From the sequence record PZ452579.1: a stretch of 64,000 bases of DNA; one strand, given 5' to 3'. This DNA is from a phage. Made by a program: the position numbers and the translations under genes. Shown in pieces: positions 9,840 to 28,167 of the stretch. How positions within the stretch are numbered: position 1 is the stretch's first letter; every line of letters starts with the position of its first letter. The notes beneath the pieces were generated by a model. That model had not been told where the DNA came from and searched no databases. It saw only the letters and a program-made list of their open reading frames with translations.

Positions 9840-10088
9840 TTATTCTTTTTCGCGAATAATAATTACTTGTTGAGGCTGCTGAGCAGATTTCTTTTCGGCA
9901 ACGATAGACCAAATTAAAGTTCCAATCCAACCAATCATCGTCCAGTTAAAGAGTAAAGATACAAAGAAGATTGCTGTTGTGCTTTTTGTGCCACGAATAA
10001 GTGCGATTACCCAAGGCAACATGTAAATGATGATTGAACCAATACCTGCGATTAAAACTGCTACTGAACTAGCTACGAATAATTCCAT
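9840..10088 (-). CDS. Small membrane protein (two TM)
   Basis: 82 aa, hydrophobic. Confidence 0.5.
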   Translation of the reverse strand: MELFVASSVAVLIAGIGSIIIYMLPWVIALIRGTKSTTAIFFVSLLFNWTMIGWIGTLIWSIVAEKKSAQQPQQVIIIREKE

Positions 10089-10149: not shown

Positions 10150-10518
10150 TTAATTAAATTTGTTTAAACGTTCAATACGCTGGACGTAGTTATTCGCGAT
10201 TTGTTTCTGGGTAGGCTCTTTACCAGTTGTTTCAACATAGCGAATGAATGCGATTTCAGTAGCCTGTAAGCAATGTTCTTTAACGCGCTGTTCTTTTGAC
10301 ATAGCTACAGTATCAGAATCACGATAACGTTGAGCATGAGCATCAGCTTGAATCATTCGATTACCTACAGTAACCGGGTCTTCCACTTCAACTTTAGGTT
10401 GTTCATATTGTTTAACATTCGGATTGTAAATCAGTTGGCCAACGTTATTAGGAATAAAGCCATGGGCACCACATCCGGTTAATCCAAATACCATTGCTAA
10501 AGCGATTAATTTTTTCAT
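10150..10518 (-). CDS. Putative lipoprotein
   Basis: 122 aa; signal peptide with lipobox LTGC. Confidence 0.55.
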   Translation of the reverse strand: MKKLIALAMVFGLTGCGAHGFIPNNVGQLIYNPNVKQYEQPKVEVEDPVTVGNRMIQADAHAQRYRDSDTVAMSKEQRVKEHCLQATEIAFIRYVETTGKEPTQKQIANNYVQRIERLNKFN

Positions 10519-13062: not shown

Positions 13063-13404
13063 TTAAAAGAATTTAAATTTTTTCTTGGTTCGTTCATTAA
13101 AAGCTTGTTGTACTTGCATTGTAACACATTTTTCAACATGTGGTGCAAGTTCTGCTTTTCTGTCCTGGTCAAGAACTGCAAAGTCCATTACGATTTTACC
13201 ATCAACCCAGTCTAGTTTTGTAATATAGACTATATGATGGGAACCGTCTTCAAGTGTAATCAGAATCTCTTGAATGACATTTTCCATTGCTGAACGGATA
13301 ATTTTAAGAGATTCATTAAACACTCGTTCTTTGCGAATGTCTTCCCCTTCCGAAGAAGGGGATTCATCAACGATTTCTAGATTTAAATCATCGAGATTAT
13401 TCAT
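13063..13404 (-). CDS. 40: gp40 head vertex assembly protein (by synteny)
   Basis: ORF between 41 and uvsX; track start is TTG at 13425, first ATG at 13404. Confidence 0.6.
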   Translation of the reverse strand: MNNLDDLNLEIVDESPSSEGEDIRKERVFNESLKIIRSAMENVIQEILITLEDGSHHIVYITKLDWVDGKIVMDFAVLDQDRKAELAPHVEKCVTMQVQQAFNERTKKKFKFF

Positions 13405-14569
13405 CGAAATCTTCCATTTCGTCAAGGTCGTTTTCTATATCTGCTGCAGACGGAGCATCAGAAGTTTTAACCGGAACTTTAGTTGTTGCTTTGCAATTAA
13501 TAAGGTCGTTAACAGCGTCATCAACTTCTTTAATAGAAGAGATAGCACCTAGTTTATATTTAGTTTCAATTGCATCTCGGAAAGGTTTGTGTTTAAACAA
13601 AGGTCCCCAGAATTCTACACAATCAGTAGCTTTAGCACGCCATGATTTTTCTTCACGAATCATTTCACCTGTTTCTTCGTCAAGGAATTCGCGAGCATAC
13701 CAACCGGCTTTAGGCTTAACTACAAAACCAATTTCAGTTGCCATTTCTAACAAGCCACTGAATGGGTCAATACCGCCATCAAAATTAACCGTGATCGGGA
13801 AAGTAGATTTCTCTTTAACTGTGCGAGATTTTTCTGCTTTCAACGTGAAGTCATAACCGGTCAATTCTGTACCTTCTTTAACCTGACGTTTAGAGATAAA
13901 AAATACCGTGTTGGCAGAATAAAGAATACCTGTACCACCGCCCATAATCTCTTTAGGATACAATCCGCCGATTTCCATTGCTGTATGGTTAATTGCAACA
14001 CACGGAATATCTTTAATAGTCAAATACGGGGTCACAATACGGAAAAGAGATTTAAGTGCCTTAGCACGAGACATATCACCTACGACTTTCTCGTTCAATG
14101 CATCTTCGGTTTCTTTCTTAGATGCAGTATTACCAATCGAGTCAATAAAGATAATAACTTTATCACCGCGTTCAATAGCGTCAAGCTGATTAGTCATATC
14201 AACTTTAAGTTGTTCGACAGATTGAATCGGAGTATGAACTACACGGTCTAAATCAACACCCATTGAACGAAAATAAGATTCTGAAGCACCGAATTCTGAG
14301 TCATAAAACAAACAGATTGCATCTTTATATTTCTTCATATACGCTGCAACCATAGTTAGTCCAAACAACGTTTTAAAGTGTTTAGAAGGAGCAGCAAAAA
14401 TAGTTAAGCCTGATTGCAACCCTGCATTCAGAGCACCACCTAGTGCAATATTCAACATCGGAATACGAGTAGGGACTTCATCACGATTATTAAACAGCTT
14501 AGACTTAGTCAAGTCTGCAGTCATTTTAGAAGTAGAAGCTTTAATCAGACGAGATTTTAAATCAGACAT
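13397..14569 (-). CDS. uvsX: UvsX recombinase (RecA-like)
   Basis: 390 aa; MSDLKSRLIKASTSKMTA... and RecA fold motifs; matches T4 UvsX. Confidence 0.95.
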   Translation of the reverse strand: MSDLKSRLIKASTSKMTADLTKSKLFNNRDEVPTRIPMLNIALGGALNAGLQSGLTIFAAPSKHFKTLFGLTMVAAYMKKYKDAICLFYDSEFGASESYFRSMGVDLDRVVHTPIQSVEQLKVDMTNQLDAIERGDKVIIFIDSIGNTASKKETEDALNEKVVGDMSRAKALKSLFRIVTPYLTIKDIPCVAINHTAMEIGGLYPKEIMGGGTGILYSANTVFFISKRQVKEGTELTGYDFTLKAEKSRTVKEKSTFPITVNFDGGIDPFSGLLEMATEIGFVVKPKAGWYAREFLDEETGEMIREEKSWRAKATDCVEFWGPLFKHKPFRDAIETKYKLGAISSIKEVDDAVNDLINCKATTKVPVKTSDAPSAADIENDLDEMEDFDE

Positions 14570-14667: not shown

Positions 14668-15216
14668 TTAACGAGCCCATTTGATGATTTCTGTAATCAA
14701 ATCATTACGTTCGCTTGCATTAAATCCTATAACTTTGTTAGCACCATCATGATTAAGTAATTGATACGTTTGGATTTTGTTATGAATTGCAAACTCTTCA
14801 AAATGTGAAATGACTGTATTAAAACCGAATGAAGACAAAGTAATAAGGTCGTCTTCAAAACTTTCAGTCATTTCGTTACGTGTTAAAATAATTGTGAACA
14901 CATCATGGTTTTGGCAAAGACGAATATAATCCTGTTCATAAACGTCAAGAACCGAGTCCGCATCTTGTCGAATACGTCCATAAACCCAGTTACTAATATA
15001 TCCACGGTCTAACAGATAAATCTTAGTAGGGTCTAAATAATTCAACATCGTTTCGAAACAGCCAACTTCGTTTCGAGACTTAACATCGAAACGTCCATCA
15101 ACTGTTCGTTTAGGGAAATCAATCTTTACATATCTTTCACTAATTTCCATTATGTCATTAATGAAAGTTGTTTTACCAGCATTATCCGGGCCATCTACTA
15201 AAATAATTTTAGCCAT
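14668..15216 (-). CDS. P-loop kinase (dNK/dNMP-kinase or small sugar-kinase-like)
   Basis: 182 aa; Walker A GPDNAGKTT and LLDRGY (DR motif); occupies part of T4 beta-glucosyltransferase slot. Confidence 0.6.
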   Translation of the reverse strand: MAKIILVDGPDNAGKTTFINDIMEISERYVKIDFPKRTVDGRFDVKSRNEVGCFETMLNYLDPTKIYLLDRGYISNWVYGRIRQDADSVLDVYEQDYIRLCQNHDVFTIILTRNEMTESFEDDLITLSSFGFNTVISHFEEFAIHNKIQTYQLLNHDGANKVIGFNASERNDLITEIIKWAR

Positions 15217-15217
15217 T

Positions 15218-16117
15218 TTATTCCTCGATTACGACATCTTCGTATTTAGGTATATTATACGGCGAAGAAATTAAAGCATTAAAGTAGATGAACTCACCAA
15301 GACCTGGATGGAATACTTCTTCAGGATTTTCGAAATATTGAATCTTCGGACGTCCTTTAAGAATTTGATAGTACTCAGTTTTAGTCGGTTTAAAAATTCG
15401 AATCAGCGCTTCTTCAGGATACTTATTTCTGTCGAAGCTATTATTTGGATCGGTTATATAAAGCGGTTGACCTAATTGAATTGCACATTCAACCACTTGT
15501 TCAAAACGATAGCATGGGTCACTAATTCGAAATGGATGAAAAATACCATCTAGATGAATAGGAGCCAAATCACCTACAAGACGCTGCATGATGGAAGGAC
15601 GTATAACTTTCTGGGTTATGATAATCTTATTACCATCGGCACCAGCGTTAACCAGCACTTCCTTTTGACGTTTATTCAACACAGTTGTTTGGATTGAACG
15701 ATTAACCGACAACATGTCGGTTTTTAAGAATTCGTCAATATAAAAACGTGGTTTATTAGGGTCTGCGGTGATATTGAAATTGAATTCTACATCAAAAGCG
15801 CCGTCATATCCAGTGATATCTGTGATTAGAAAATCACAATCATAATAAGCAATTAATGAATCAACCACAAATTCATTTTCAGACCAGAAATATTTACGAG
15901 TGTTATACGCGTTATCTTTATACCATAATGGAACAAACTTAAATTCTGGGAAAAGACGTTCACATTCTTTAATATCAGATGCATTACGTGGATATGTAAT
16001 CACATCACCTGGATTAGCACGGTGCAAATGAAGTTGGAAGTTGCCATCCTTAAGGATAGCATACTGTCCAGTTTCATAAGACCGCATACTCAAGATAGGT
16101 ACGCGGAAAATAGCCAT
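15218..16117 (-). CDS. Hypothetical protein at bgt locus (candidate hmC sugar transferase)
   Basis: 299-aa ORF, tightly coupled to flanking genes; no recognisable motif; function inferred only from position. Confidence 0.5.
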   Translation of the reverse strand: MAIFRVPILSMRSYETGQYAILKDGNFQLHLHRANPGDVITYPRNASDIKECERLFPEFKFVPLWYKDNAYNTRKYFWSENEFVVDSLIAYYDCDFLITDITGYDGAFDVEFNFNITADPNKPRFYIDEFLKTDMLSVNRSIQTTVLNKRQKEVLVNAGADGNKIIITQKVIRPSIMQRLVGDLAPIHLDGIFHPFRISDPCYRFEQVVECAIQLGQPLYITDPNNSFDRNKYPEEALIRIFKPTKTEYYQILKGRPKIQYFENPEEVFHPGLGEFIYFNALISSPYNIPKYEDVVIEE

Positions 16118-16833
16118 TAGTCAAGGAATCCTTTAACATAATCAAAATCACGTTCAAACACATGGGCACTTACCATGGTATGAGTATAATCACCAACTTC
16201 TACACCACATTCGTTAGCGATATAATGAAGTAATTTTCCTTGGAGATAAAAATCCAACTGCATAACAACAGCACAGTTCTGAGAACGCATATGACAGTGG
16301 GTATAAAGCTTACCATCGCGAATATAATAAGTCACTGAGTCAGTACATGGATATTCAAGTGTTTCGTCCGAATCAAGCAAAGCCTGATCAGAACTTTCTA
16401 GAATTTGGAACACAACTCTTCGAGAGTTAGGCTTCTCTTTAAGTTCTTTTAGAAGAGCTGGTAATTGGGCTGCAATGCGAGGACCATAGAAAGTGTTGAA
16501 GTTCGCAGGCAAAGCATCTGATTTTGGTTTAGAAATAAATTTAGCGACATTAGGATATGCCTTAAACGCTTCTTCTGCATCAGTACCACCAGAAATCATA
16601 AATTTCCAGAAGTCTTCGGCATATTCATAAGAGATGCGGTTAATACGTGGGTCGGTCATTTTGAATGATGATGGAGTGTCAACAACTACTGTCATAGACC
16701 CAATTTCATTACAACGTCCAATACGAGAATCAGTTACGAATTCCGGGTTTTCTAAAATTTCACGATTGACTGCTTTAAATGCGGCTTGAAAATCTGCGGC
16801 TTTGATATATTTCATTGTGTTATGTTTTCCCAT
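16117..16833 (-). CDS. 42: Thymidylate-synthase-fold pyrimidine hydroxymethylase (gene 42-like dCMP hydroxymethylase)
   Basis: 238 aa; catalytic Cys in YPCTDS, RSQN...QLDFY segment alignable to T4 gp42 RSND...FRNDYA with Asp retained at the cytosine-specificity position; divergent from T4. Confidence 0.75.
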   Translation of the reverse strand: MGKHNTMKYIKAADFQAAFKAVNREILENPEFVTDSRIGRCNEIGSMTVVVDTPSSFKMTDPRINRISYEYAEDFWKFMISGGTDAEEAFKAYPNVAKFISKPKSDALPANFNTFYGPRIAAQLPALLKELKEKPNSRRVVFQILESSDQALLDSDETLEYPCTDSVTYYIRDGKLYTHCHMRSQNCAVVMQLDFYLQGKLLHYIANECGVEVGDYTHTMVSAHVFERDFDYVKGFLD

Positions 16834-16874
16834 GTTTACCTCAATACAGTTATTATATACTCAATTCATAAAGC

Positions 16875-17114
16875 TTATTTGAATTTCTTGGCAATGTTGA
16901 TATAACGTAAAGCTTCAGCATCGATACTTCCAAGAACACTATGAAGAAATGCATCAGCGTAATATTCTAGTTGAACAGGTTCTTTAATCACTTTAGCCGC
17001 TTTGGTTTCAAACAGGCCCATAAGGGCCTTTTTAAGAATTTGTTCGTTAGTGTTCAGTTTCATAGTCAAAATCTCTTCATTAAGTTGGTGGTTAAAAGTT
17101 TTTCTAGAAATCAT
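16875..17114 (-). CDS. Hypothetical soluble protein (imm position, not Imm-like)
   Basis: 79 aa, no TM segment. Confidence 0.45.
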   Translation of the reverse strand: MISRKTFNHQLNEEILTMKLNTNEQILKKALMGLFETKAAKVIKEPVQLEYYADAFLHSVLGSIDAEALRYINIAKKFK

Positions 17115-18271
17115 TCTGGGTACCTCAAAGCGTCGTCAGAGTTAGTTATATCAATAATAGATATAGAATTTTCTGATAACCCGTTTTTAGATAACTGACG
17201 TTTATAATATCTTTCACAATATGTACACGTCGTCCCGCAGATTTCATTAGCACAATCGAAATCTGGATGTCTGAACCACCTTTTTTCTAAAAAGCCATCT
17301 AACAAAGAGGTTTCAATATTTACTGTATGTGAAAACTCGGTCTCATTTTCAAGAGTGAAAATAGTCTCTAAAGGCTTCCACAGTTCTAACAAATTACCTT
17401 CAAACTTTTCAGAAGCGTATGCTTCAAGAACTTTCAAAATGTAGTCTGTGCTACCTGTACGTCCTGAAACTTTGAATTGAGTGATACCGATATCATTATA
17501 AAGTTTCAAATCTTGAGGACGAACAAAACGAGTTCTCAACCAGTTAAATGGGTCTGTATCACGAGCTTTAATACAGTGCTGCATTGGATATCCGTTTAAG
17601 GATTTAGCATCATCAGCTGTAACATCAGTACTATGGAAAATATAGCAAGAGTCACGATAGCTACAATGTGTTGTATACCCTTTACCAGCATTAGAACAGA
17701 ACTCATTTACAAGAACTTCAAATATTATATTGTTCTTATTGCAAAACTCTGCTGCACGCTTCAGGAAAGAAACTGAACGGTTCTTATGAATTCCGCAACA
17801 GACCTTTTTGATATTATATTGGTCATGCAAGTATTTGATTTGAGTTACAGCATCGACATGTAGAATTGTTGAAACTTCAATCTCAATGTCTTTATTGACT
17901 TCACGAACAATTTCCATAACAACAGGGTTAGCGATAGTAATACGCCATACGCCTATTGACCAAAGATACTGAACATAATCCTGAATAGCTTTCTTCTTCC
18001 ACTCAACTAGTTCTCTTTTTGAACCAGGATTTATCGTGTTGAGCGTATAGTTAAAGCAAATACCTAATTCGTTACAACGTTTAACGTAATCTTCTAACAT
18101 CTTTTTGTCAACGTCAGGAAGCCTAAAATCAGGTCTGGCTGCTACAAAAGCCATTTCTCTTGTAGAGCCGTATACTTCGTTTATCAAGCTATTAGGATAA
18201 GTTTTATTGAGCTCTACGATTTTATCAAGAAGAGCTAAATCAAAATTCGTTCCGATTTTAAAAGTATTCAT
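17111..18271 (-). CDS. Hypothetical Cys-rich protein within sugar cassette (candidate transferase)
   Basis: About 386 aa from MNTFKIG...; C-terminal CANEICGTTCTYC cluster; no confident family. Confidence 0.5.
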   Translation of the reverse strand: MNTFKIGTNFDLALLDKIVELNKTYPNSLINEVYGSTREMAFVAARPDFRLPDVDKKMLEDYVKRCNELGICFNYTLNTINPGSKRELVEWKKKAIQDYVQYLWSIGVWRITIANPVVMEIVREVNKDIEIEVSTILHVDAVTQIKYLHDQYNIKKVCCGIHKNRSVSFLKRAAEFCNKNNIIFEVLVNEFCSNAGKGYTTHCSYRDSCYIFHSTDVTADDAKSLNGYPMQHCIKARDTDPFNWLRTRFVRPQDLKLYNDIGITQFKVSGRTGSTDYILKVLEAYASEKFEGNLLELWKPLETIFTLENETEFSHTVNIETSLLDGFLEKRWFRHPDFDCANEICGTTCTYCERYYKRQLSKNGLSENSISIIDITNSDDALRYPE

Positions 18272-18327
18272 TTTTTTGCATCTCACGTTAATTGATGCGA
18301 TGGTTTTTGCAGGTCTTACTTAAATTA

Positions 18328-18714
18328 TTATAGATTCGGTTTATATGATTTAAATGTTTCGAATTCGCCTTTATTCATAAGAGCTTTGAATTCGTCAGGA
18401 CGCATAGCTTTGTCGTCGATAATCCAATCATATACTGGTTTATGTGTTAGCAAATTATGGTACTTTAAGCCAATGTTTGCCAAGTTCTGGATCAGACTTG
18501 GGAGAATGTCAATTGCTATACGACCAGGACCTACTGACTTCATACCGCGAGCAGTGTAAAGCGTTATGGTATGCCCTGCATCATACAGGGCATTAATGGC
18601 AGACACCATTTCGACGTCTGGTTTGAAGTTCACGTAATCACGATTGTTATTCCACTCTGTTATACAATCATCGACATCAAAACAAAGATTAAGCATGTTT
18701 TCTACACGGTGCAT
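18328..18714 (-). CDS. HAD-superfamily phosphatase (small, C0-type)
   Basis: FDVDDCIT (motif I), YTARG (motif II), KP...IIDDK (motifs III/IV); start ATG shares a base with upstream stop (TAATG). Confidence 0.7.
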   Translation of the reverse strand: MHRVENMLNLCFDVDDCITEWNNNRDYVNFKPDVEMVSAINALYDAGHTITLYTARGMKSVGPGRIAIDILPSLIQNLANIGLKYHNLLTHKPVYDWIIDDKAMRPDEFKALMNKGEFETFKSYKPNL

Positions 18715-20399
18715 TAGATTCGTTCCCATTGATGAGTGATATCGCCACCGATTGGACGATAGGAAACACCAGTTTCTTTATCAGTTAGTACCCATTTACC
18801 AGGATTTTTTGTAATCAGAGTAGCCGTTACAGGTTCTGCTACGTCATAACTAATAGAGCCGTCTTGAAGTACACGGCCCATATTACGTAATTGCTTAGTC
18901 AGAAGTTCCATACCTTTATAATATGCGGCTACCGCTTTAAGTGGATTATTCTTGAAATAACCACCTAATGCAATCCAGATAATTGCCACTGCCAAATGAT
19001 GATACTCGTTAAACGAACTCATCTTTCCATATTTGTAAACTAATGGATTGATGTTAATAGTCACATTACAAGTTGTTTCATCAATAGTAAACTGTCCCCA
19101 GGTCGGATTAGCGTTGAATTCATCATAACCTGAAACAGCATAAAGCACTTTAGCTTCATCGTACAATTTTGGCCCGTAAATCTTGGTTTCGCCAAAATAT
19201 CCACGAGGGTCGATAAACTTGACTTCGCCGTTATCAGTAATCATAGTATTACTGAAGTTCGGGTCACCATGAATAACAGAGTACTGTCCCTGAGAACGGT
19301 TATGATAACGAATAAGGTGTTCTAAAGCTTGTTTCAGCATTGGCTTCAGACGTCCAATCTTAGTGTAGTTCACATGTGTGATTTTACCAAATGAATCAAT
19401 CAATGGTTGAATGCTTTCACAACGATCAATAACTTTCGTATAGAATTCTTTAGTGAAATCACGACGAACAGTTTCAGGACTTACAAAATAAGTGTCTGTG
19501 CTGAATTTCAGTGCATCTAAAATTGCATCAACAATTTGTGGACGAGCAAGACTTGATTTGGATTTAATATATTCAAATGCCGGCTTACCTTTAATGCGTT
19601 CCATTTCAAAGTTATTTTCATTAACAGAAACTAACTGAGGAACTGAATCTGATTTCACTTTAAGATACCATGAAATCTCATCTTTCTGAAGAGCTCGGCC
19701 CTGTTCGGTTAATGCGAATTTAGTTACAGTTTCTTCACCAATTTCAACTGCATTAAAACTACGATTAAGTTCACGAACTTCATGAGCTTTTTCAAGTTTA
19801 GGCATATCACCTAAATCAATTAGATTCATAAGCTCTGATTTATTGAATGCACTGCCGTAAAGGAATTCTACGAAATCACGTCCTTTGCAGTATTCGTGAA
19901 TTTCCTCATCAGTAGAACCCATGTAGAATTCCCAGTCTTTGAACTGATAAATTCCTACAACATTACCACCTGTTGAACCTACGTTAGTGATATTTTCACC
20001 GTCGAAATTATATCGACATTCGTCACCCTTAACATAGATTGCGTTAACATTCCAAGACCATGAACCAAAATCAGGAATAATATCACACCAGTTAACAATT
20101 ACATTATGGCCGTCTAAATCTTTGTGTAATTTAGCAAGAGCATAAGCAGAACCATACGCTTCATCAACTGTACGAATAGTCACATTGAACCCTTCTTGCT
20201 CACAATAAGCTCGAACAGTTTCAGCAAATTTTGAATGAACTACTACAATAATTTCATCTGCGCCAAGGTCAGAATAAATTGTATACAAATTGCTCAGAAT
20301 AGTGTCTTGTTTATAGTTCACAAGAACTTTTGGAATATGGTGAGTAATTGGATATAAACGAGTTGCCAGTCCAGCACCAAGAATAACAGCTTTTTTCAT
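18714..20399 (-). CDS. Bifunctional sugar-1-phosphate nucleotidyltransferase / sugar kinase
   Basis: 561 aa; N-terminal ILGAGLATRL (GxGxR NTase motif), C-terminal IHGDPNFSNTMITDNGEVKFIDPRGYFG (APH/choline-kinase-like catalytic loop). Confidence 0.75.
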   Translation of the reverse strand: MKKAVILGAGLATRLYPITHHIPKVLVNYKQDTILSNLYTIYSDLGADEIIVVVHSKFAETVRAYCEQEGFNVTIRTVDEAYGSAYALAKLHKDLDGHNVIVNWCDIIPDFGSWSWNVNAIYVKGDECRYNFDGENITNVGSTGGNVVGIYQFKDWEFYMGSTDEEIHEYCKGRDFVEFLYGSAFNKSELMNLIDLGDMPKLEKAHEVRELNRSFNAVEIGEETVTKFALTEQGRALQKDEISWYLKVKSDSVPQLVSVNENNFEMERIKGKPAFEYIKSKSSLARPQIVDAILDALKFSTDTYFVSPETVRRDFTKEFYTKVIDRCESIQPLIDSFGKITHVNYTKIGRLKPMLKQALEHLIRYHNRSQGQYSVIHGDPNFSNTMITDNGEVKFIDPRGYFGETKIYGPKLYDEAKVLYAVSGYDEFNANPTWGQFTIDETTCNVTININPLVYKYGKMSSFNEYHHLAVAIIWIALGGYFKNNPLKAVAAYYKGMELLTKQLRNMGRVLQDGSISYDVAEPVTATLITKNPGKWVLTDKETGVSYRPIGGDITHQWERI

Positions 20400-20426
20400 G
20401 TTGAAGTCCTCATTGGTAAGTAGGAG

Positions 20427-20453
20427 TATTGTACACTATTCTAGTTAAAGCAT
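20427..20453 (-). promoter_or_regulatory. Candidate T4 middle promoter (MotA box + -10) upstream of the NTase/kinase gene
   Basis: Minus strand aATGCTTTAa then 11 nt then TACAAT, about 20 nt before RBS GAGGA and ATG at 20399. Confidence 0.4.
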
Positions 20454-20584
20454 TCATACTTTGCTTGTAGTCCAATCATAATCCATCCAATTACAAGTGT
20501 TGGAATCATTACTGGAGCCGTTAAGCTCCAGTAGATAGTCATGACAAGCATCAATAGTAAAAGTCCTATTGTTATTGCTTTCAT
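20441..20584 (-). CDS. 47-aa hydrophobic peptide (single TM)
   Basis: Manual translation MKAITIGLLLLMLVMTIYWSLTAPVMIPTLVIGWIMIGLQAKYECFN; ATG overlaps SIS gene stop (ATGA); below track size cut-off. Confidence 0.35.
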   Translation of the reverse strand: MKAITIGLLLLMLVMTIYWSLTAPVMIPTLVIGWIMIGLQAKYECFN

Positions 20585-21216
20585 TGTTCGCCTCGTAACA
20601 TGGCACCTAGTGCACCGCCTGGATGGAACTTAAGGAAATCATTAGAGGTAAATCCGCGTTCAGACGAAAGGTTGATAGCGAACGTATCGATAAGCGCTAA
20701 CAACAATGTAGTAGACATTGTCGGAGCTAAAGAGTTCTCGTCAACTTCTACCGCGATACCGGTACAGAACGTATAATCAAAAAGAGCTTCGTATTCTTGT
20801 GGAATGTCAGGGTTACAATGTAACAGAATCTGTTTAACCTGAGGACGAATCATACGAAGATGTTTAGCAACACCTATCATTTCTTCAGTCTTACCAGAAC
20901 GACTGATGTGAATCAACACATCATTAGGTGCAATAAATCCTGCGTCACCATGAGAATAATGCCCAGTGTTCAAATACATGCTAGGAATACCTAGTGAAGC
21001 AAAAGTCTCGGAAGCTTTAGTTGCGATATTAGCATTCTTACCAACACCTGTAATAATTACACGACTTTCATAATTACTCAGTCCAGGGCGACGAAGAGTT
21101 TCAAGAATAGCATTATATCGGGCAGGGTTTTGACTAATTACTTTAGCCATAGTGGCAAGAGATGAAGCTTGTTTTACGATTGCGTCAATAGCGATAGTGA
21201 TTGGTGTAGTTTTCAT
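20581..21216 (-). CDS. SIS-domain phosphosugar isomerase (KdsD/GutQ-like arabinose-5-phosphate isomerase, SIS domain only)
   Basis: 211 aa; ITGVGKNANIATK ... HGDAG ... SRSGKTEE pattern matching KdsD SIS domain rather than GmhA. Confidence 0.75.
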   Translation of the reverse strand: MKTTPITIAIDAIVKQASSLATMAKVISQNPARYNAILETLRRPGLSNYESRVIITGVGKNANIATKASETFASLGIPSMYLNTGHYSHGDAGFIAPNDVLIHISRSGKTEEMIGVAKHLRMIRPQVKQILLHCNPDIPQEYEALFDYTFCTGIAVEVDENSLAPTMSTTLLLALIDTFAINLSSERGFTSNDFLKFHPGGALGAMLRGEQ

Positions 21217-21256: not shown

Positions 21257-23968
21257 TCAAAAATCAAACATATCGAACAGAGATGCTTTCTTCTCGTAAT
21301 CGAGTTTCGCTGCTGATGTGAATCCTTCAAGCGGTTTAATAAATGTCTTCTCAAGGAGAACAGTGTAGTCCATCCAATGAAGTACATCATCTTTGATTAA
21401 ATCAGTGATTTCCGTACCAGAAGGCCATGCGATACATTTATCACCGAATGGGTTTCCTTCACGTAAAGGCAGAACATATACTTTTTCACCTTCTACAACT
21501 TGTGGAGCATCAATATTACCTTTGATAGCCCGGTTATATGTCAGAATTCCACGAATATGGAACGGGCATTTAGGTCCTGGATATCCACCTACATCATATT
21601 TAGCAATGTTATTCGCAGAAGATACCGACGCGATGCTAATATAATTCAATTGACGGAATTCTTTTTCAAACTCTTTAAAATATTCTTGTAATGATTCTTC
21701 ACCTTCTTGAAGCATACGACGAATACATTCTTTAAGAGCTTTCTGTACTGCTTTAGGAGTCGAAGATTTCTGAGTCTCTAGACCCATGATTTTGAGTTTA
21801 GGCTCAGCGTATCTGGTTCCTTCCATATCCCACACGTTTAATGCATAACGTTTCTTACCAGTCCAGAATCCACCAATACCTTTAGAACCGAGCGGAGGAC
21901 CAGCGATAGCTTCTCGGTCCATGAACATTAAGTGTTGTTTATTGTTCATGTATTCACACATTTCACGGAAACCTTTATCAATAGCTGGTTCCATACGTTC
22001 ACGTGCAAACTTATCTAAGAAGTCTACCCAATGGTTGGTATCACGGAATTTAGATTCACCAACCTTATCGATAATTTTATCAGCAGATACGTAAATAGAG
22101 TCTGTATCACCATAAAGAACGAAAGCTTCACCTTCTGTACCACAAACTTCATTCAGATATTCATTAACTTTACGTTCAATCCACTGTAAAGCCATTTGAC
22201 CAAATGTTGTGATTGCAGTAGCATTACGCAAATCATAATAACGGAACCAAACGTTGCCAAGTGCACCATAAAGTGAGTTGATAAGCAATTTACGGTTAAT
22301 CTGTGCAGTCATACCTGCAACTTCAGTACGTTGAGCTCTAAACAACATTTCATTAAGAGATTTAGCAGACAACTTTTTAATCTTTTCTTTAATCTCATCA
22401 CTGAAGTCGAAACGATAATCAACATCTAATGGTTCGTCAACAGAAAGATTAGGATTATGTAAGGCCTCTTTAATTATTTCACCATTACGTTGAGCCGCAA
22501 GCATATAACCTTTATGTTCTTTACGTTGATTAAAGACTTTAGTGATTTCAGTTGGAACAACACCGTCACGGTCTTTATAATACATCATGCCGTTAGGAGA
22601 ACAACTGTACACATCAGAAGGACGTTCAGCAACAGCGTTAATATAATCATGTAATGGAGCTACTTTAAACGTTCCTGCTATTGTTTCTGGGCTAATATTC
22701 ACTTGGCGAATGATGCTTGGATACAGAGATGTTAGGTCGAAGCTCATCACATATTTGTATCGATTTGGAATAGGTTCCTTAACAAAAGCACCCGGGTAAG
22801 GTTGAACTGGATGCGAACGACCTTGTGGAATCACCTTGTTTTGTTCTTTAAGGCTATTAAAAATAATAGCGTCCCACGTTTTAATTGGGCTAAACACAGA
22901 TTGAATCTGTATCTTAGCATAATAACCCATGTCCAAGCTCAAGTTAATGAACTGACGCTTAGCATCAATTTGCAATACACGATACACGTCGATAATGTTA
23001 TAAGAAATATATCGTTGGTGATTGCTTTCACGAAGCTTAGAAATAGGGCCATCATATTTCAGTTTACCAACGTTCAATTCAAATTCTGAAATGTAATCCA
23101 GAGAATACGACGGTTGATTGGTAAAAGAGAATTTTTTGTAAAGGTCGATGTAATCAAGAACAGAGATACCGAACAATGTAATGATTTCTCGTGAACCATA
23201 CATGTTTTCAATAACTTTAACACGAGTCTTGCGATGTGGTGACAACCGTTTTGCTGTGGATTCGCCAAAAATATTCTTGATTCGGTTATACACATATGGA
23301 ATATCAAATGACTCAACGTTCCATCCAGTCAAAATGACAGGAGTTTTCTGTTGCCAGAAGTTGAGATATTCCATCAACAATTCTTTTTCGTTATCGAACG
23401 GCATATAAATGATTTTATCGATAATTTCAGATGGAACTTCATCACCGCCTTGTTCTTGAAGCTTAGCAGCGATTTCAATAGACCATTCTTCTACATTACC
23501 ATATGGAGAATTCAATAGATCAAATACGTAGAACCTGTCGTCAATTGAGTCATAATGGGTGATAGCATCAATCGGATGTTTTGCTTGTGACGGCTCAGGG
23601 AACCCGTCCGGAGATGTTACTTCGATGTCGAAGTTAGCCACACGAATTTTTGTATGGTCGTATTTGATTTCATAGTTATAAGTGTCAGACAAATACGCCA
23701 ATTTGAAATCGTCCATGCCAAGTGCTTCAAGTCCGATATCTTCCATGCGTTTAATCCATTGTGAGGCATCACGCATATTAGCGAACAACTTACGAGTACA
23801 CGGCTTACCGTAGATATCGAAATATTTCGTAGCCTGACTTTCTGGACAATGAGCAAACAGTGATGGTTTATATTCTACTTCACGAGTACGTTCACGGCCG
23901 TTAGAATCGATGTAACGTTCAAAAATTGAATCACCGATCTGTTCAACCGTTAAGTAAAATTCTTTCAT
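21257..23968 (-). CDS. 43: DNA polymerase gp43 (family B)
   Basis: 903 aa; exonuclease and polymerase motifs including YGDTDS; T4 gp43 size and position. Confidence 0.95.
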   Translation of the reverse strand: MKEFYLTVEQIGDSIFERYIDSNGRERTREVEYKPSLFAHCPESQATKYFDIYGKPCTRKLFANMRDASQWIKRMEDIGLEALGMDDFKLAYLSDTYNYEIKYDHTKIRVANFDIEVTSPDGFPEPSQAKHPIDAITHYDSIDDRFYVFDLLNSPYGNVEEWSIEIAAKLQEQGGDEVPSEIIDKIIYMPFDNEKELLMEYLNFWQQKTPVILTGWNVESFDIPYVYNRIKNIFGESTAKRLSPHRKTRVKVIENMYGSREIITLFGISVLDYIDLYKKFSFTNQPSYSLDYISEFELNVGKLKYDGPISKLRESNHQRYISYNIIDVYRVLQIDAKRQFINLSLDMGYYAKIQIQSVFSPIKTWDAIIFNSLKEQNKVIPQGRSHPVQPYPGAFVKEPIPNRYKYVMSFDLTSLYPSIIRQVNISPETIAGTFKVAPLHDYINAVAERPSDVYSCSPNGMMYYKDRDGVVPTEITKVFNQRKEHKGYMLAAQRNGEIIKEALHNPNLSVDEPLDVDYRFDFSDEIKEKIKKLSAKSLNEMLFRAQRTEVAGMTAQINRKLLINSLYGALGNVWFRYYDLRNATAITTFGQMALQWIERKVNEYLNEVCGTEGEAFVLYGDTDSIYVSADKIIDKVGESKFRDTNHWVDFLDKFARERMEPAIDKGFREMCEYMNNKQHLMFMDREAIAGPPLGSKGIGGFWTGKKRYALNVWDMEGTRYAEPKLKIMGLETQKSSTPKAVQKALKECIRRMLQEGEESLQEYFKEFEKEFRQLNYISIASVSSANNIAKYDVGGYPGPKCPFHIRGILTYNRAIKGNIDAPQVVEGEKVYVLPLREGNPFGDKCIAWPSGTEITDLIKDDVLHWMDYTVLLEKTFIKPLEGFTSAAKLDYEKKASLFDMFDF

Positions 23969-27450: not shown

Positions 27451-28167
27451 ATGAATTATAACTCAATATACGAAAAGCTTATCACCAATGCTAAATCAAG
27501 AAGTTTAGATGGTTATACAGAACGTCATCACATTATACCACAATGTTTAGGTGGAAGTGATGATGCTTTAAACTTAGTAGACTTAACACCGGAAGAACAT
27601 TATTTGGCACATCAACTGTTGGTAAAAATCCATCCAGATAATGCCTCTTTAATATATGCCGCTCGTATGATGACCATATCATCTCCTAAAGCAGATAGAA
27701 GCAAAAACAAATTATTTGGATGGCTTCGACGTAAGAATCAAGAAGTTCAAAAGAACAAAGAATTCACTGCTGAAACCCGTAAGAAAATGTCTGAGTCTGC
27801 AAAAAATAAACCAAAGATTACATGTCCACACTGCGGTTTAACCGGCACTGAAGGAAACATGAGACGTTGGCATTTTGATAACTGTAAACAAGGCCCTACG
27901 CCTAAAATAGTAAAACTTGATCAAGAAACAAAAGATAAAATAATTAAAACCATGGCCACGAAAATTTGGAAAGAAGATTCTTGCCCGTTTTGTGGCTTAA
28001 CTACTAAGTTATCGGCGTTAAAGCCACATATAAAATTCTGTAAATCAAATCCTAACAGAAAGAAAAAAGAGGACAAGAAAATTAAATGTCCTCATTGCGA
28101 TAAAATAGGGATCCCTGCTAATATGCATCGTTGGCATTTTGATAACTGTAAACATAAGCCTCATTAA
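27451..28167 (+). mobile_element. Free-standing HNH homing endonuclease with three C-terminal zinc-binding repeats
   Basis: 238 aa; ERHHIIPQCLGGSDDALNLVDLTPEEHYLAHQ (HNH); three CxxC...RWHFDNCK-type modules; only sizeable plus-strand gene in this block. Confidence 0.8.

Follow-up and report, generated by a model that had tools for sequence, protein, structure and literature searches.

A Mosigvirus cassette for arabinosyl-5-hydroxycytosine DNA and a possible oxygen-independent role for its U32 protein

How does a gut phage make a DNA base whose oxygen is derived from O2 in an anoxic gut? This question is raised by a 64,000-nucleotide (nt) stretch of phage DNA, sequence record PZ452579.1, which was analysed as a whole and is called the window here. 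Its positions 14,668 to 21,216, lying between uvsX and gene 43, hold a gene cluster which, with a probability of about 0.93, is the cytosine hypermodification cassette of Mosigviruses, for arabinosyl-5-hydroxycytosine. The cassette is an already known system, characterised in near-identical phages. The new lead is the role of one of its members, a putative iron-sulfur protein of the U32 family; the remaining cassette has already been described. I somewhat favour a hydroxylase function for the U32 protein, acting on C5 of pyrimidines with prephenate and without O2; it would open a second route to 5-hydroxycytosine (5hoC), and the sole route in a wide set of uncultured phages lacking the flavin enzyme.

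What does this locus contain? The nine open reading frames (ORFs) of the first-pass annotation were confirmed coordinate by coordinate. All of them are on the minus strand, flanked by uvsX (13397-14569) and gene 43 (21257-23968). The packing is tight, with gene overlaps of 4, 16, 4, and 1 nt. In T4, the same interval holds segA, beta-gt, 42, imm, and imm.1. The alpha-gt and beta-gt genes of T4 are indeed missing from the window, the only sequence searched (tblastn, no match at E <= 0.01), and the interval from gene 47 to gene 55 holds, as had been noticed at first pass, small ORFs only; homologs of a-gt.4 and a-gt.5 are among them. The 6.5-kb block matches 236 phage records, and the identity is 95-99% in 154 of them; thus, the cassette arrangement is not due to chance. 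The top match (98.4%) is Escherichia phage ChristianSchoenbein (Bas46), a Mosigvirus, whose record carries the annotation 'putative enzyme involved in UDP-arabinose biosynthesis'. Judged by its sequence, the window is DNA of a Mosigvirus (RB69-type). Compared protein by protein, the cassette products are 99-100% identical to those of Bas46 and 97-100% identical to those of HY126. The gene order from uvsX to gene 43 is identical to that of the RB69, HY126, and Bas46/47 system (the Afh/Aat genes), from which the window shows no substantive difference. In the RB69 GenBank record, the genes for the first glycosyltransferase (GT1) and for the nucleotidyltransferase-kinase are split by sequencing errors, whereas each is one intact ORF in the window.

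Which base is made? At first pass, the gene 42 product was read as a T4-type enzyme making hydroxymethyl-dCMP (hm-dCMP), so that the decorated base would be 5-hydroxymethylcytosine (5-hmC). This assignment had to be given up. The gene (16117-16833) encodes a thymidylate synthase (TS) homolog of 238 amino acids (aa; Pfam PF00303, 2.4e-15) identical at 235 of its 238 residues to the protein of PDB entries 9IQC, 9IR2, and 9IQU. The 9IQC enzyme is probably the HY126 protein, since the identity to HY126 is equal and a neighbouring PDB entry, 9IQZ, bears the label of a glycosyltransferase from HY126. Aligned with ThyA and T4 gp42, the TS homolog has the signature E143, C146, N169, and D177 (E. coli ThyA numbering). 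T4 gp42 shares the dCMP-specifying N177D change and retains D169. The identity to gp42 is 24.8%, as against 62-91% between the uvsX, gp43, gp47, and gp55 proteins and their T4 counterparts. Lee et al. (2026, PMC13326640) reported that RB69 gp48 is flavin-bound and forms 5-hydroxy-dCMP with oxygen from 18O2, and that Asn at ThyA position 169 is diagnostic of 5-hydroxylation activity. By this signature, the 238-aa protein is predicted to be a flavin- and O2-dependent 5-hydroxy-dCMP synthase, not a dCMP hydroxymethylase.

The older model, in which hm-dCMP is made by a T4-type gp42 and the cassette arabinosylates 5-hmC, goes back to Thomas et al. (2018, PMC6024577), who found arabinose on RB69 DNA and proposed arabinosyl-5-hmC; the N177D change shared with T4 gp42 also speaks for it. 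It meets with the D169-to-N change at a position where gp42 keeps D, with the low identity to gp42, and with the chemistry of RB69 DNA: by liquid chromatography-mass spectrometry and nuclear magnetic resonance, arabinose is ether-linked to 5hoC, the oxygen of which comes from O2 (PMC13326640). A 2026 survey (PMC13390438), which detected 5-ara-dC and 5-ara-ara-dC in Mosigvirus NP, called the hydroxymethyl assignment erroneous. The older model is contradicted in the literature and, given the N169 signature and the near-identity to the 9IQC enzyme, very improbable for this phage. Arabinosyl-5-hydroxycytosine virion DNA is on record for RB69, NP, and Bas46 (PMC13326640, PMC13390438). The enzymology of the cassette, which had been thought not to be established, was largely in print: papers from 2018 to 2026 cover the DNA chemistry of RB69-type phages and the greater part of the enzymology.

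Where would the sugar come from? The gene at 20581-21216 encodes a 211-aa homolog of RB69 gp55 with a SIS domain (4.1e-10). Its profile scores are 5.1e-32 for KpsF/GutQ and 2e-30 for KdsD, in both cases over the SIS part of the models only. Residues 48-207 match positions 47-202 of the 328-position KdsD model, with scores below the curated cutoffs, and the CBS domain pair is missing. The protein is therefore a short, SIS-only relative of KdsD/KpsF with a predicted D-arabinose-5-phosphate isomerase (API) function; the earlier label of a KdsD-like SIS isomerase holds for the SIS part. Escherichia phage dhabil and Klebsiella phage kv_tblp5 lack a phage API and presumably depend on host KdsD/GutQ. 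The next enzyme (18714-20399, 561 aa), a homolog of AfhE and RB69 gp52:53, is bifunctional. An NTP_transferase domain occupies its N-terminus (residues 3-99, 8.5e-10), and its C-terminus is an APH-like kinase, with kinase-family matches at residues 344-409 that include HGDPNFSN, an APH-type HGDxxxxN motif. It is 97% identical to the HY126 protein. The RB69 counterpart was verified as one ORF in PMC6024577, in which ORF055c and ORF53_52c were named as candidates for UDP-arabinose synthesis. The third enzyme (18328-18729, 133 aa) is a HAD-type phosphatase with a DVDD motif, homologous to AfhF and RB69 gp51 and 100% identical to the HY126 protein; its NCBIfam match is TIGR01689, a capsule-biosynthesis phosphatase (4.3e-13).

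As relayed in PMC13326640 from He et al. (2026) on HY126, AfhE converts arabinose-5-phosphate to arabinose-1,5-bisphosphate and later makes UDP-arabinose, and AfhF takes off the 5-phosphate. In the cassette, the SIS isomerase would convert ribulose-5-phosphate to arabinose-5-phosphate, the kinase domain of the 561-aa enzyme would phosphorylate C1, the HAD phosphatase would remove the 5-phosphate from the resulting bisphosphate, and the N-terminal nucleotidyltransferase domain would uridylylate the product to UDP-arabinofuranose (UDP-Araf). The first-pass annotation had the central idea right, namely a cassette making a nucleoside-diphosphate arabinose for DNA decoration; the donor in the published pathway is UDP-Araf. 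Its order of isomerase, phosphatase, and kinase was wrong, because in the published order the 1-kinase acts before the HAD 5-phosphatase and the uridylyltransferase comes last.

Could these enzymes instead serve a host-surface polysaccharide (Kdo, capsule, or lipopolysaccharide) and have nothing to do with DNA? The isomerase does resemble KdsD/KpsF, and the top NCBIfam match of the phosphatase is to capsule biosynthesis. Yet the genes for the hydroxylase and for a GT-B transferase of DNA type are interleaved with them within the replication module, and the DNA of RB69, NP, and Bas46 carries arabinose (PMC13326640, PMC13390438). A surface role is the least probable of all the alternatives and can practically be set aside.

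How would the sugar reach the base? One or both of the two proteins with no assigned function had been put forward as glycosyltransferases. PDB sequence searches gave no match for either the 299-aa or the 386-aa protein, and only fold comparison was informative. The suggestion held for the 299-aa protein (GT1; 15218-16117), an RB69 gp46:47 homolog, which has a GT-B fold and whose gene lies directly downstream of the hydroxylase gene. It failed for the other, the 391-aa ORF, which is a U32 protein by Pfam family (PF01136) and fold. GT1 is proposed to be the first arabinosyltransferase acting on 5hoC. The third gene of this group (14668-15216) encodes a P-loop nucleotide kinase of 182 aa with the Walker A motif GPDNAGKT, a thymidylate-kinase-like homolog of RB69 gp45 (PHROG 761 'thymidylate kinase', 1.9e-45; 99.5% identical to Bas46 and 97.8% to HY126). 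In nearly all related loci, the kinase, the hydroxylase, and GT1 form a conserved triad, and therefore a route by mononucleotide glycosylation is worth considering. The data of Lee et al. do not distinguish a mononucleotide from DNA as the acceptor of the first arabinose (PMC13326640); the GT1 acceptor and the kinase substrate are what I infer from the genes. In kv_tblp5, the kinase gene has shifted upstream of the U32 gene, while the order U32, small ORF, TS homolog, and GT1 is kept.

Put together, the TS homolog with flavin and O2 would hydroxylate dCMP at C5, and the 5-hydroxy-dCMP would be phosphorylated and built into DNA in place of dC. GT1 would attach a first arabinose to the 5-hydroxyl, a second transferase would add another, and the product would be mono- and di-arabinosyl-5-hydroxycytosine DNA resistant to many restriction enzymes. 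For the second arabinosyltransferase (RB69 ORF003c / Aat), a tblastn search over the 64-kb window gave no homolog (lowest E = 1.2). The ORF003c homolog of Bas46 lies at 72,047-73,147, about 5.4 kb before position 78,523, to which the window start corresponds. By this comparison, the second gene is placed outside the window. The cassette accounts for the resistance of RB69-type phages to many restriction enzymes and some CRISPR systems, as already published. The DNA chemistry and the hydroxylase activity are established for proteins 97-100% identical to those of the window, and the AfhE and AfhF activities are known for such proteins at second hand. Three points weigh against reading the region in this way. 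The isolated DLP3 transferases were inactive on 5hoC DNA, and the first glycosylation was left unreconstituted in that work (PMC13326640); the activities of AfhE and AfhF rest on the second-hand account in PMC13326640; and the DNA chemistry is carried over to this phage from its relatives rather than taken from its own DNA.

What, then, is the U32 protein doing in this cassette? The ORF spans 17111-18286 (391 aa) if read from a GTG, and 17111-18271 (386 aa) from the ATG at 18271. Since homologs and public annotations use the ATG, the shorter form is most likely the true one. The protein, a homolog of RB69 gp50, matches Pfam PF01136 (Peptidase_U32) with 42.2 bits against a gathering cutoff of 22.4. 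Its AF2 model (pLDDT 91) has the U32 protein 5D88 as the top Foldseek match among solved structures (TM 0.70, normalised to the target). The protein is 100% identical in HY126 and Bas46. The functions known for U32 proteins are all O2-independent hydroxylations. RlhA makes 5-hydroxycytidine in rRNA (ho5C2501) and TrhP makes 5-hydroxyuridine in tRNA (ho5U34), and prephenate and Fe-S clusters are required (PMC5727448, PMC6599085, PMC6747719). For UbiU/V, prephenate has been shown to donate the oxygen (PMC10990095). TrhP and UbiUV each have an O2-dependent alternative in cells, TrhO and UbiI/H/F (PMC5727448, PMC6599085, PMC6747719, PMC10990095).

Like RlhA, TrhP, and UbiU/UbiV, the phage protein belongs to PF01136 and has the U32 TIM-barrel fold, and some of its conserved Cys align with their cluster ligands. 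Ten Cys are invariant in a set of 34 homologs whose identity falls as low as 46%. In the alignment, C203-x5-C209 lines up with the first two cluster ligands of UbiU, RlhA, and TrhP (canonical CX6C), and UbiU C232 has its counterpart in C233 of a GYP..C motif. No counterpart was found there for the canonical third and fourth Cys; C192 and six other Cys are clade-invariant. The phage spacing is C-x10-C-x5-C-x23-C plus a C-terminal C-x4-C-x3-C-x2-C, whereas the canonical spacing is CX6CX15CX3/4C, with a variant in UbiU. The phage protein is 17-20% identical to the E. coli paralogs and lacks the RNA-binding extensions; it presumably acts on a deoxynucleotide or on DNA. A profile of the phage clade gave marginal scores against the four E. 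coli paralogs (TrhP best, 13.5 bits), so that no subfamily could be assigned.

Is the U32 gene linked to DNA hydroxylation in other phages? The IMG/VR loci scanned were 47 anchored on U32 and 52 anchored on the transferase, in addition to other contigs. Each locus was viewed for 10 kb on either side, and the retrieval was pattern-based and therefore incomplete. In a Klebsiella phage, the U32 protein is 86% identical, the TS homolog 77%, GT1 68%, the nucleotidyltransferase-kinase 43%, and the kinase 42%. No other cassette protein is as well conserved as U32. Many uncultured phage contigs carry more distant U32 homologs (40-58% identity) within modules for replication and nucleotide metabolism, and in several of them the ORF just upstream of U32 is homologous to the 299-aa transferase (hhalign probability 98.9%, E 3.6e-17). 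A TS homolog stands next to the transferase gene in 31 loci, 15 loci have U32 as well as a TS homolog, and about 20 have U32 with no D169N TS homolog in view, although a TS homolog could lie elsewhere on the contig. Apart from two contigs that end at the gene, no transferase locus in the scan had neither a TS homolog nor U32. The ECRSND signature occurs in the transferase-linked TS homologs of 65 loci. A U32-type locus contained a TS homolog in one case only (L037), and this protein, with L143, D169, and N177, is of the canonical ThyA type. One transferase-linked TS homolog (L115, 3615-4304) departs from the diagnostic signature by a Ser at ThyA position 169 (ECRSSD). One class of loci has the gene order 'TS-GT1-kinase'; the second has 'kinase-GT1-U32' or 'GT1-API-NTkin-...-U32' (NTkin, nucleotidyltransferase-kinase). 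One contig has its cassette in the same slot as the window: polB ... HAD-GT1-API-NTkin-U32 ... RecA-DnaB-gp32.

A DAHP synthase gene adjoins U32 or sits just upstream of it in seven viral loci (L046 8399-9430, L048 3-968, L049 7290-8354, L050 8323-9384, L017 9145-9891, L035 9384-10127, and L060 11076-12194), and four of the seven synthases carry a fused domain of chorismate mutase. Chorismate mutase makes prephenate. These genes look like phage auxiliary genes for prephenate supply, and their place beside U32 points to the use of prephenate by U32. As another use of these genes, the CmoA/Cx-SAM carboxymethylation route (PMC12783734) was considered and rejected, for the seven loci have no CmoA or CmoB homolog; apart from U32 as proposed here, CmoA is the phage user of prephenate that is known. 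The co-occurrence of transferase, TS homolog, and U32, the TS signatures, and the prephenate supply genes fit with non-orthologous displacement. It is proposed that a prephenate-dependent U32 enzyme displaced the O2/flavin hydroxylase in those lineages and that Mosigviruses carry both. U32 would then serve gut phages when O2 is lacking, like TrhP in the TrhP/TrhO pair and UbiUV in the UbiUV/UbiIHF pair.

U32 could also have a part other than DNA hydroxylation, as a sugar or heterocycle reductase, as a redox partner of the flavin hydroxylase, or as a hydroxylase of host rRNA or tRNA. Lee et al. name the protein in Table 1 only, without discussion, as a 'sugar or heterocycle reductase' (PMC13326640), and U32 and the arabinose-activation genes form one operon in many non-Straboviridae loci. 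In the 'kinase-GT1-U32' loci, by contrast, no sugar genes are adjacent, and the DAHP synthase and chorismate mutase genes by U32 point to prephenate use. Nor do the roughly 20 loci with the transferase and U32 offer a flavoenzyme partner, since they have no D169N TS homolog; a redox partnership is disfavoured because many U32 loci lack such an enzyme. Arabinosyl-5hoC is made both with U32, in RB69, and without it, in DLP3 (PMC13326640). Such a non-hydroxylase or RNA-directed role is possible, and I regard it as unlikely.

The case for U32 as a DNA hydroxylase is comparative throughout. Against it, direct hydroxylase activity has been reconstituted for no U32 protein (PMC10990095), which is also a point in favour of the other roles, and the E. 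coli Dhakaviruses lack U32. The Acinetobacter phage DLP3, like the Dhakaviruses, keeps the rest of the cassette without U32; it still makes arabinosyl-5hoC (PMC13326640), so that U32 is dispensable for that base. U32 is present in none of 57 Acinetobacter-phage records with the nucleotidyltransferase-kinase fusion. Acinetobacter is a strict aerobe. Host lifestyle is weak support at best for an anaerobic role, because Dhakaviruses of E. coli also carry the cassette without U32, which speaks for the other roles as well. The literature searched, which did not extend to He et al. 2026 and Mahler et al. 2025, contained nothing tying U32 or prephenate to phage DNA hydroxylation. If U32 is the anaerobic hydroxylase, DNA metabolism would gain its first assigned U32 enzyme, prephenate-dependent hydroxylation would gain a soluble, highly expressed model, and the shikimate-pathway genes of some phages would be explained.

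The scan also turned up U32 genes in other settings. One locus (L018, 5777-14179), in which no TS homolog is present, holds a glycosyltransferase (Gly_transf_sug), a TMK-like kinase, a GT1 homolog, U32, dUTPase/DCD, UDP-galactopyranose mutase, and, scoring above the PF20691 cutoff, a TET-associated DNA glycosyltransferase; a different glycosyl-hydroxypyrimidine DNA modification may be encoded there. On two very large contigs (up to 466 kb) with DnaE-type polymerases (L004 7447-9086 and L007 7504-9083), a U32 homolog directly follows a dCMP deaminase, near thymidylate kinase and UDG, with no GT1 homolog in view; the U32 substrate there may be a uracil nucleotide. A radical SAM/SPASM protein stands beside kinase-GT1-U32 in several contigs (L019 5980-7011, L020 5972-7000, and L005 12160-13185), a recurrent neighbour that fits with oxygen-sensitive chemistry in those phages.

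Two small ORFs complete the cassette. One (16875-17114, 79 aa; PHROG 8601, function class unknown) overlaps the U32 stop with its start by 4 nt. It occurs in 163 phage records, adjoining the U32 gene every time, and was not found in the Klebsiella, Dhakavirus, and Acinetobacter relatives. The other (20441-20584) encodes a 47-aa peptide of nearly all hydrophobic residues (PHROG 3610, function class unknown), with a 4-nt overlap with the isomerase stop. Outside the cassette, the imm locus had been thought to be replaced by it. Homologs of imm (9843-10088, 65%) and imm.1 (10165-10512, 32%) lie instead about 5 kb upstream of uvsX on the minus strand, not between genes 42 and 43; the superinfection-immunity locus is relocated, not lost. 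A 238-aa homing endonuclease gene (27451-28167, plus strand; PHROG 655, 6.9e-67) lies between a 45.2-like ORF and gene 46, on the strand opposite to its neighbours, and is missing there in Bas46.

How does the cassette compare with known systems? In T4, too, a TS-family enzyme makes a C5-oxygenated dCMP, a GT-B enzyme glycosylates the base from a UDP-sugar, and the genomic slot is shared. The cassette differs in installing a hydroxyl with flavin and O2, where T4 installs a hydroxymethyl from methylene-tetrahydrofolate (PMC13326640). It also makes its own pentose donor, UDP-Araf, whereas T4 uses host UDP-glucose; the window lacks alpha-gt/beta-gt homologs, and its TS homolog and gp42 share only about 25% identity. 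In the ADP-heptose pathway of GmhA, HldE, and GmhB, a SIS isomerase is followed by a bifunctional kinase/nucleotidyltransferase, with a HAD phosphatase acting between the HldE-type steps on a 1,n-bisphosphate. By analogy, the cassette would share this four-step logic and these protein families, but with a pentose, UDP, and an APH-like kinase instead of a heptose, ADP, and a ribokinase-like kinase. The glycosyl-5-hydroxycytosine system of Rhizobium phage RL38J1 has a similar cluster of D169N hydroxylase, TMK-like kinase, and glycosyltransferase, whereas its sugars are hexoses (galactofuranose and glucose) activated by other genes (PMC13326640).

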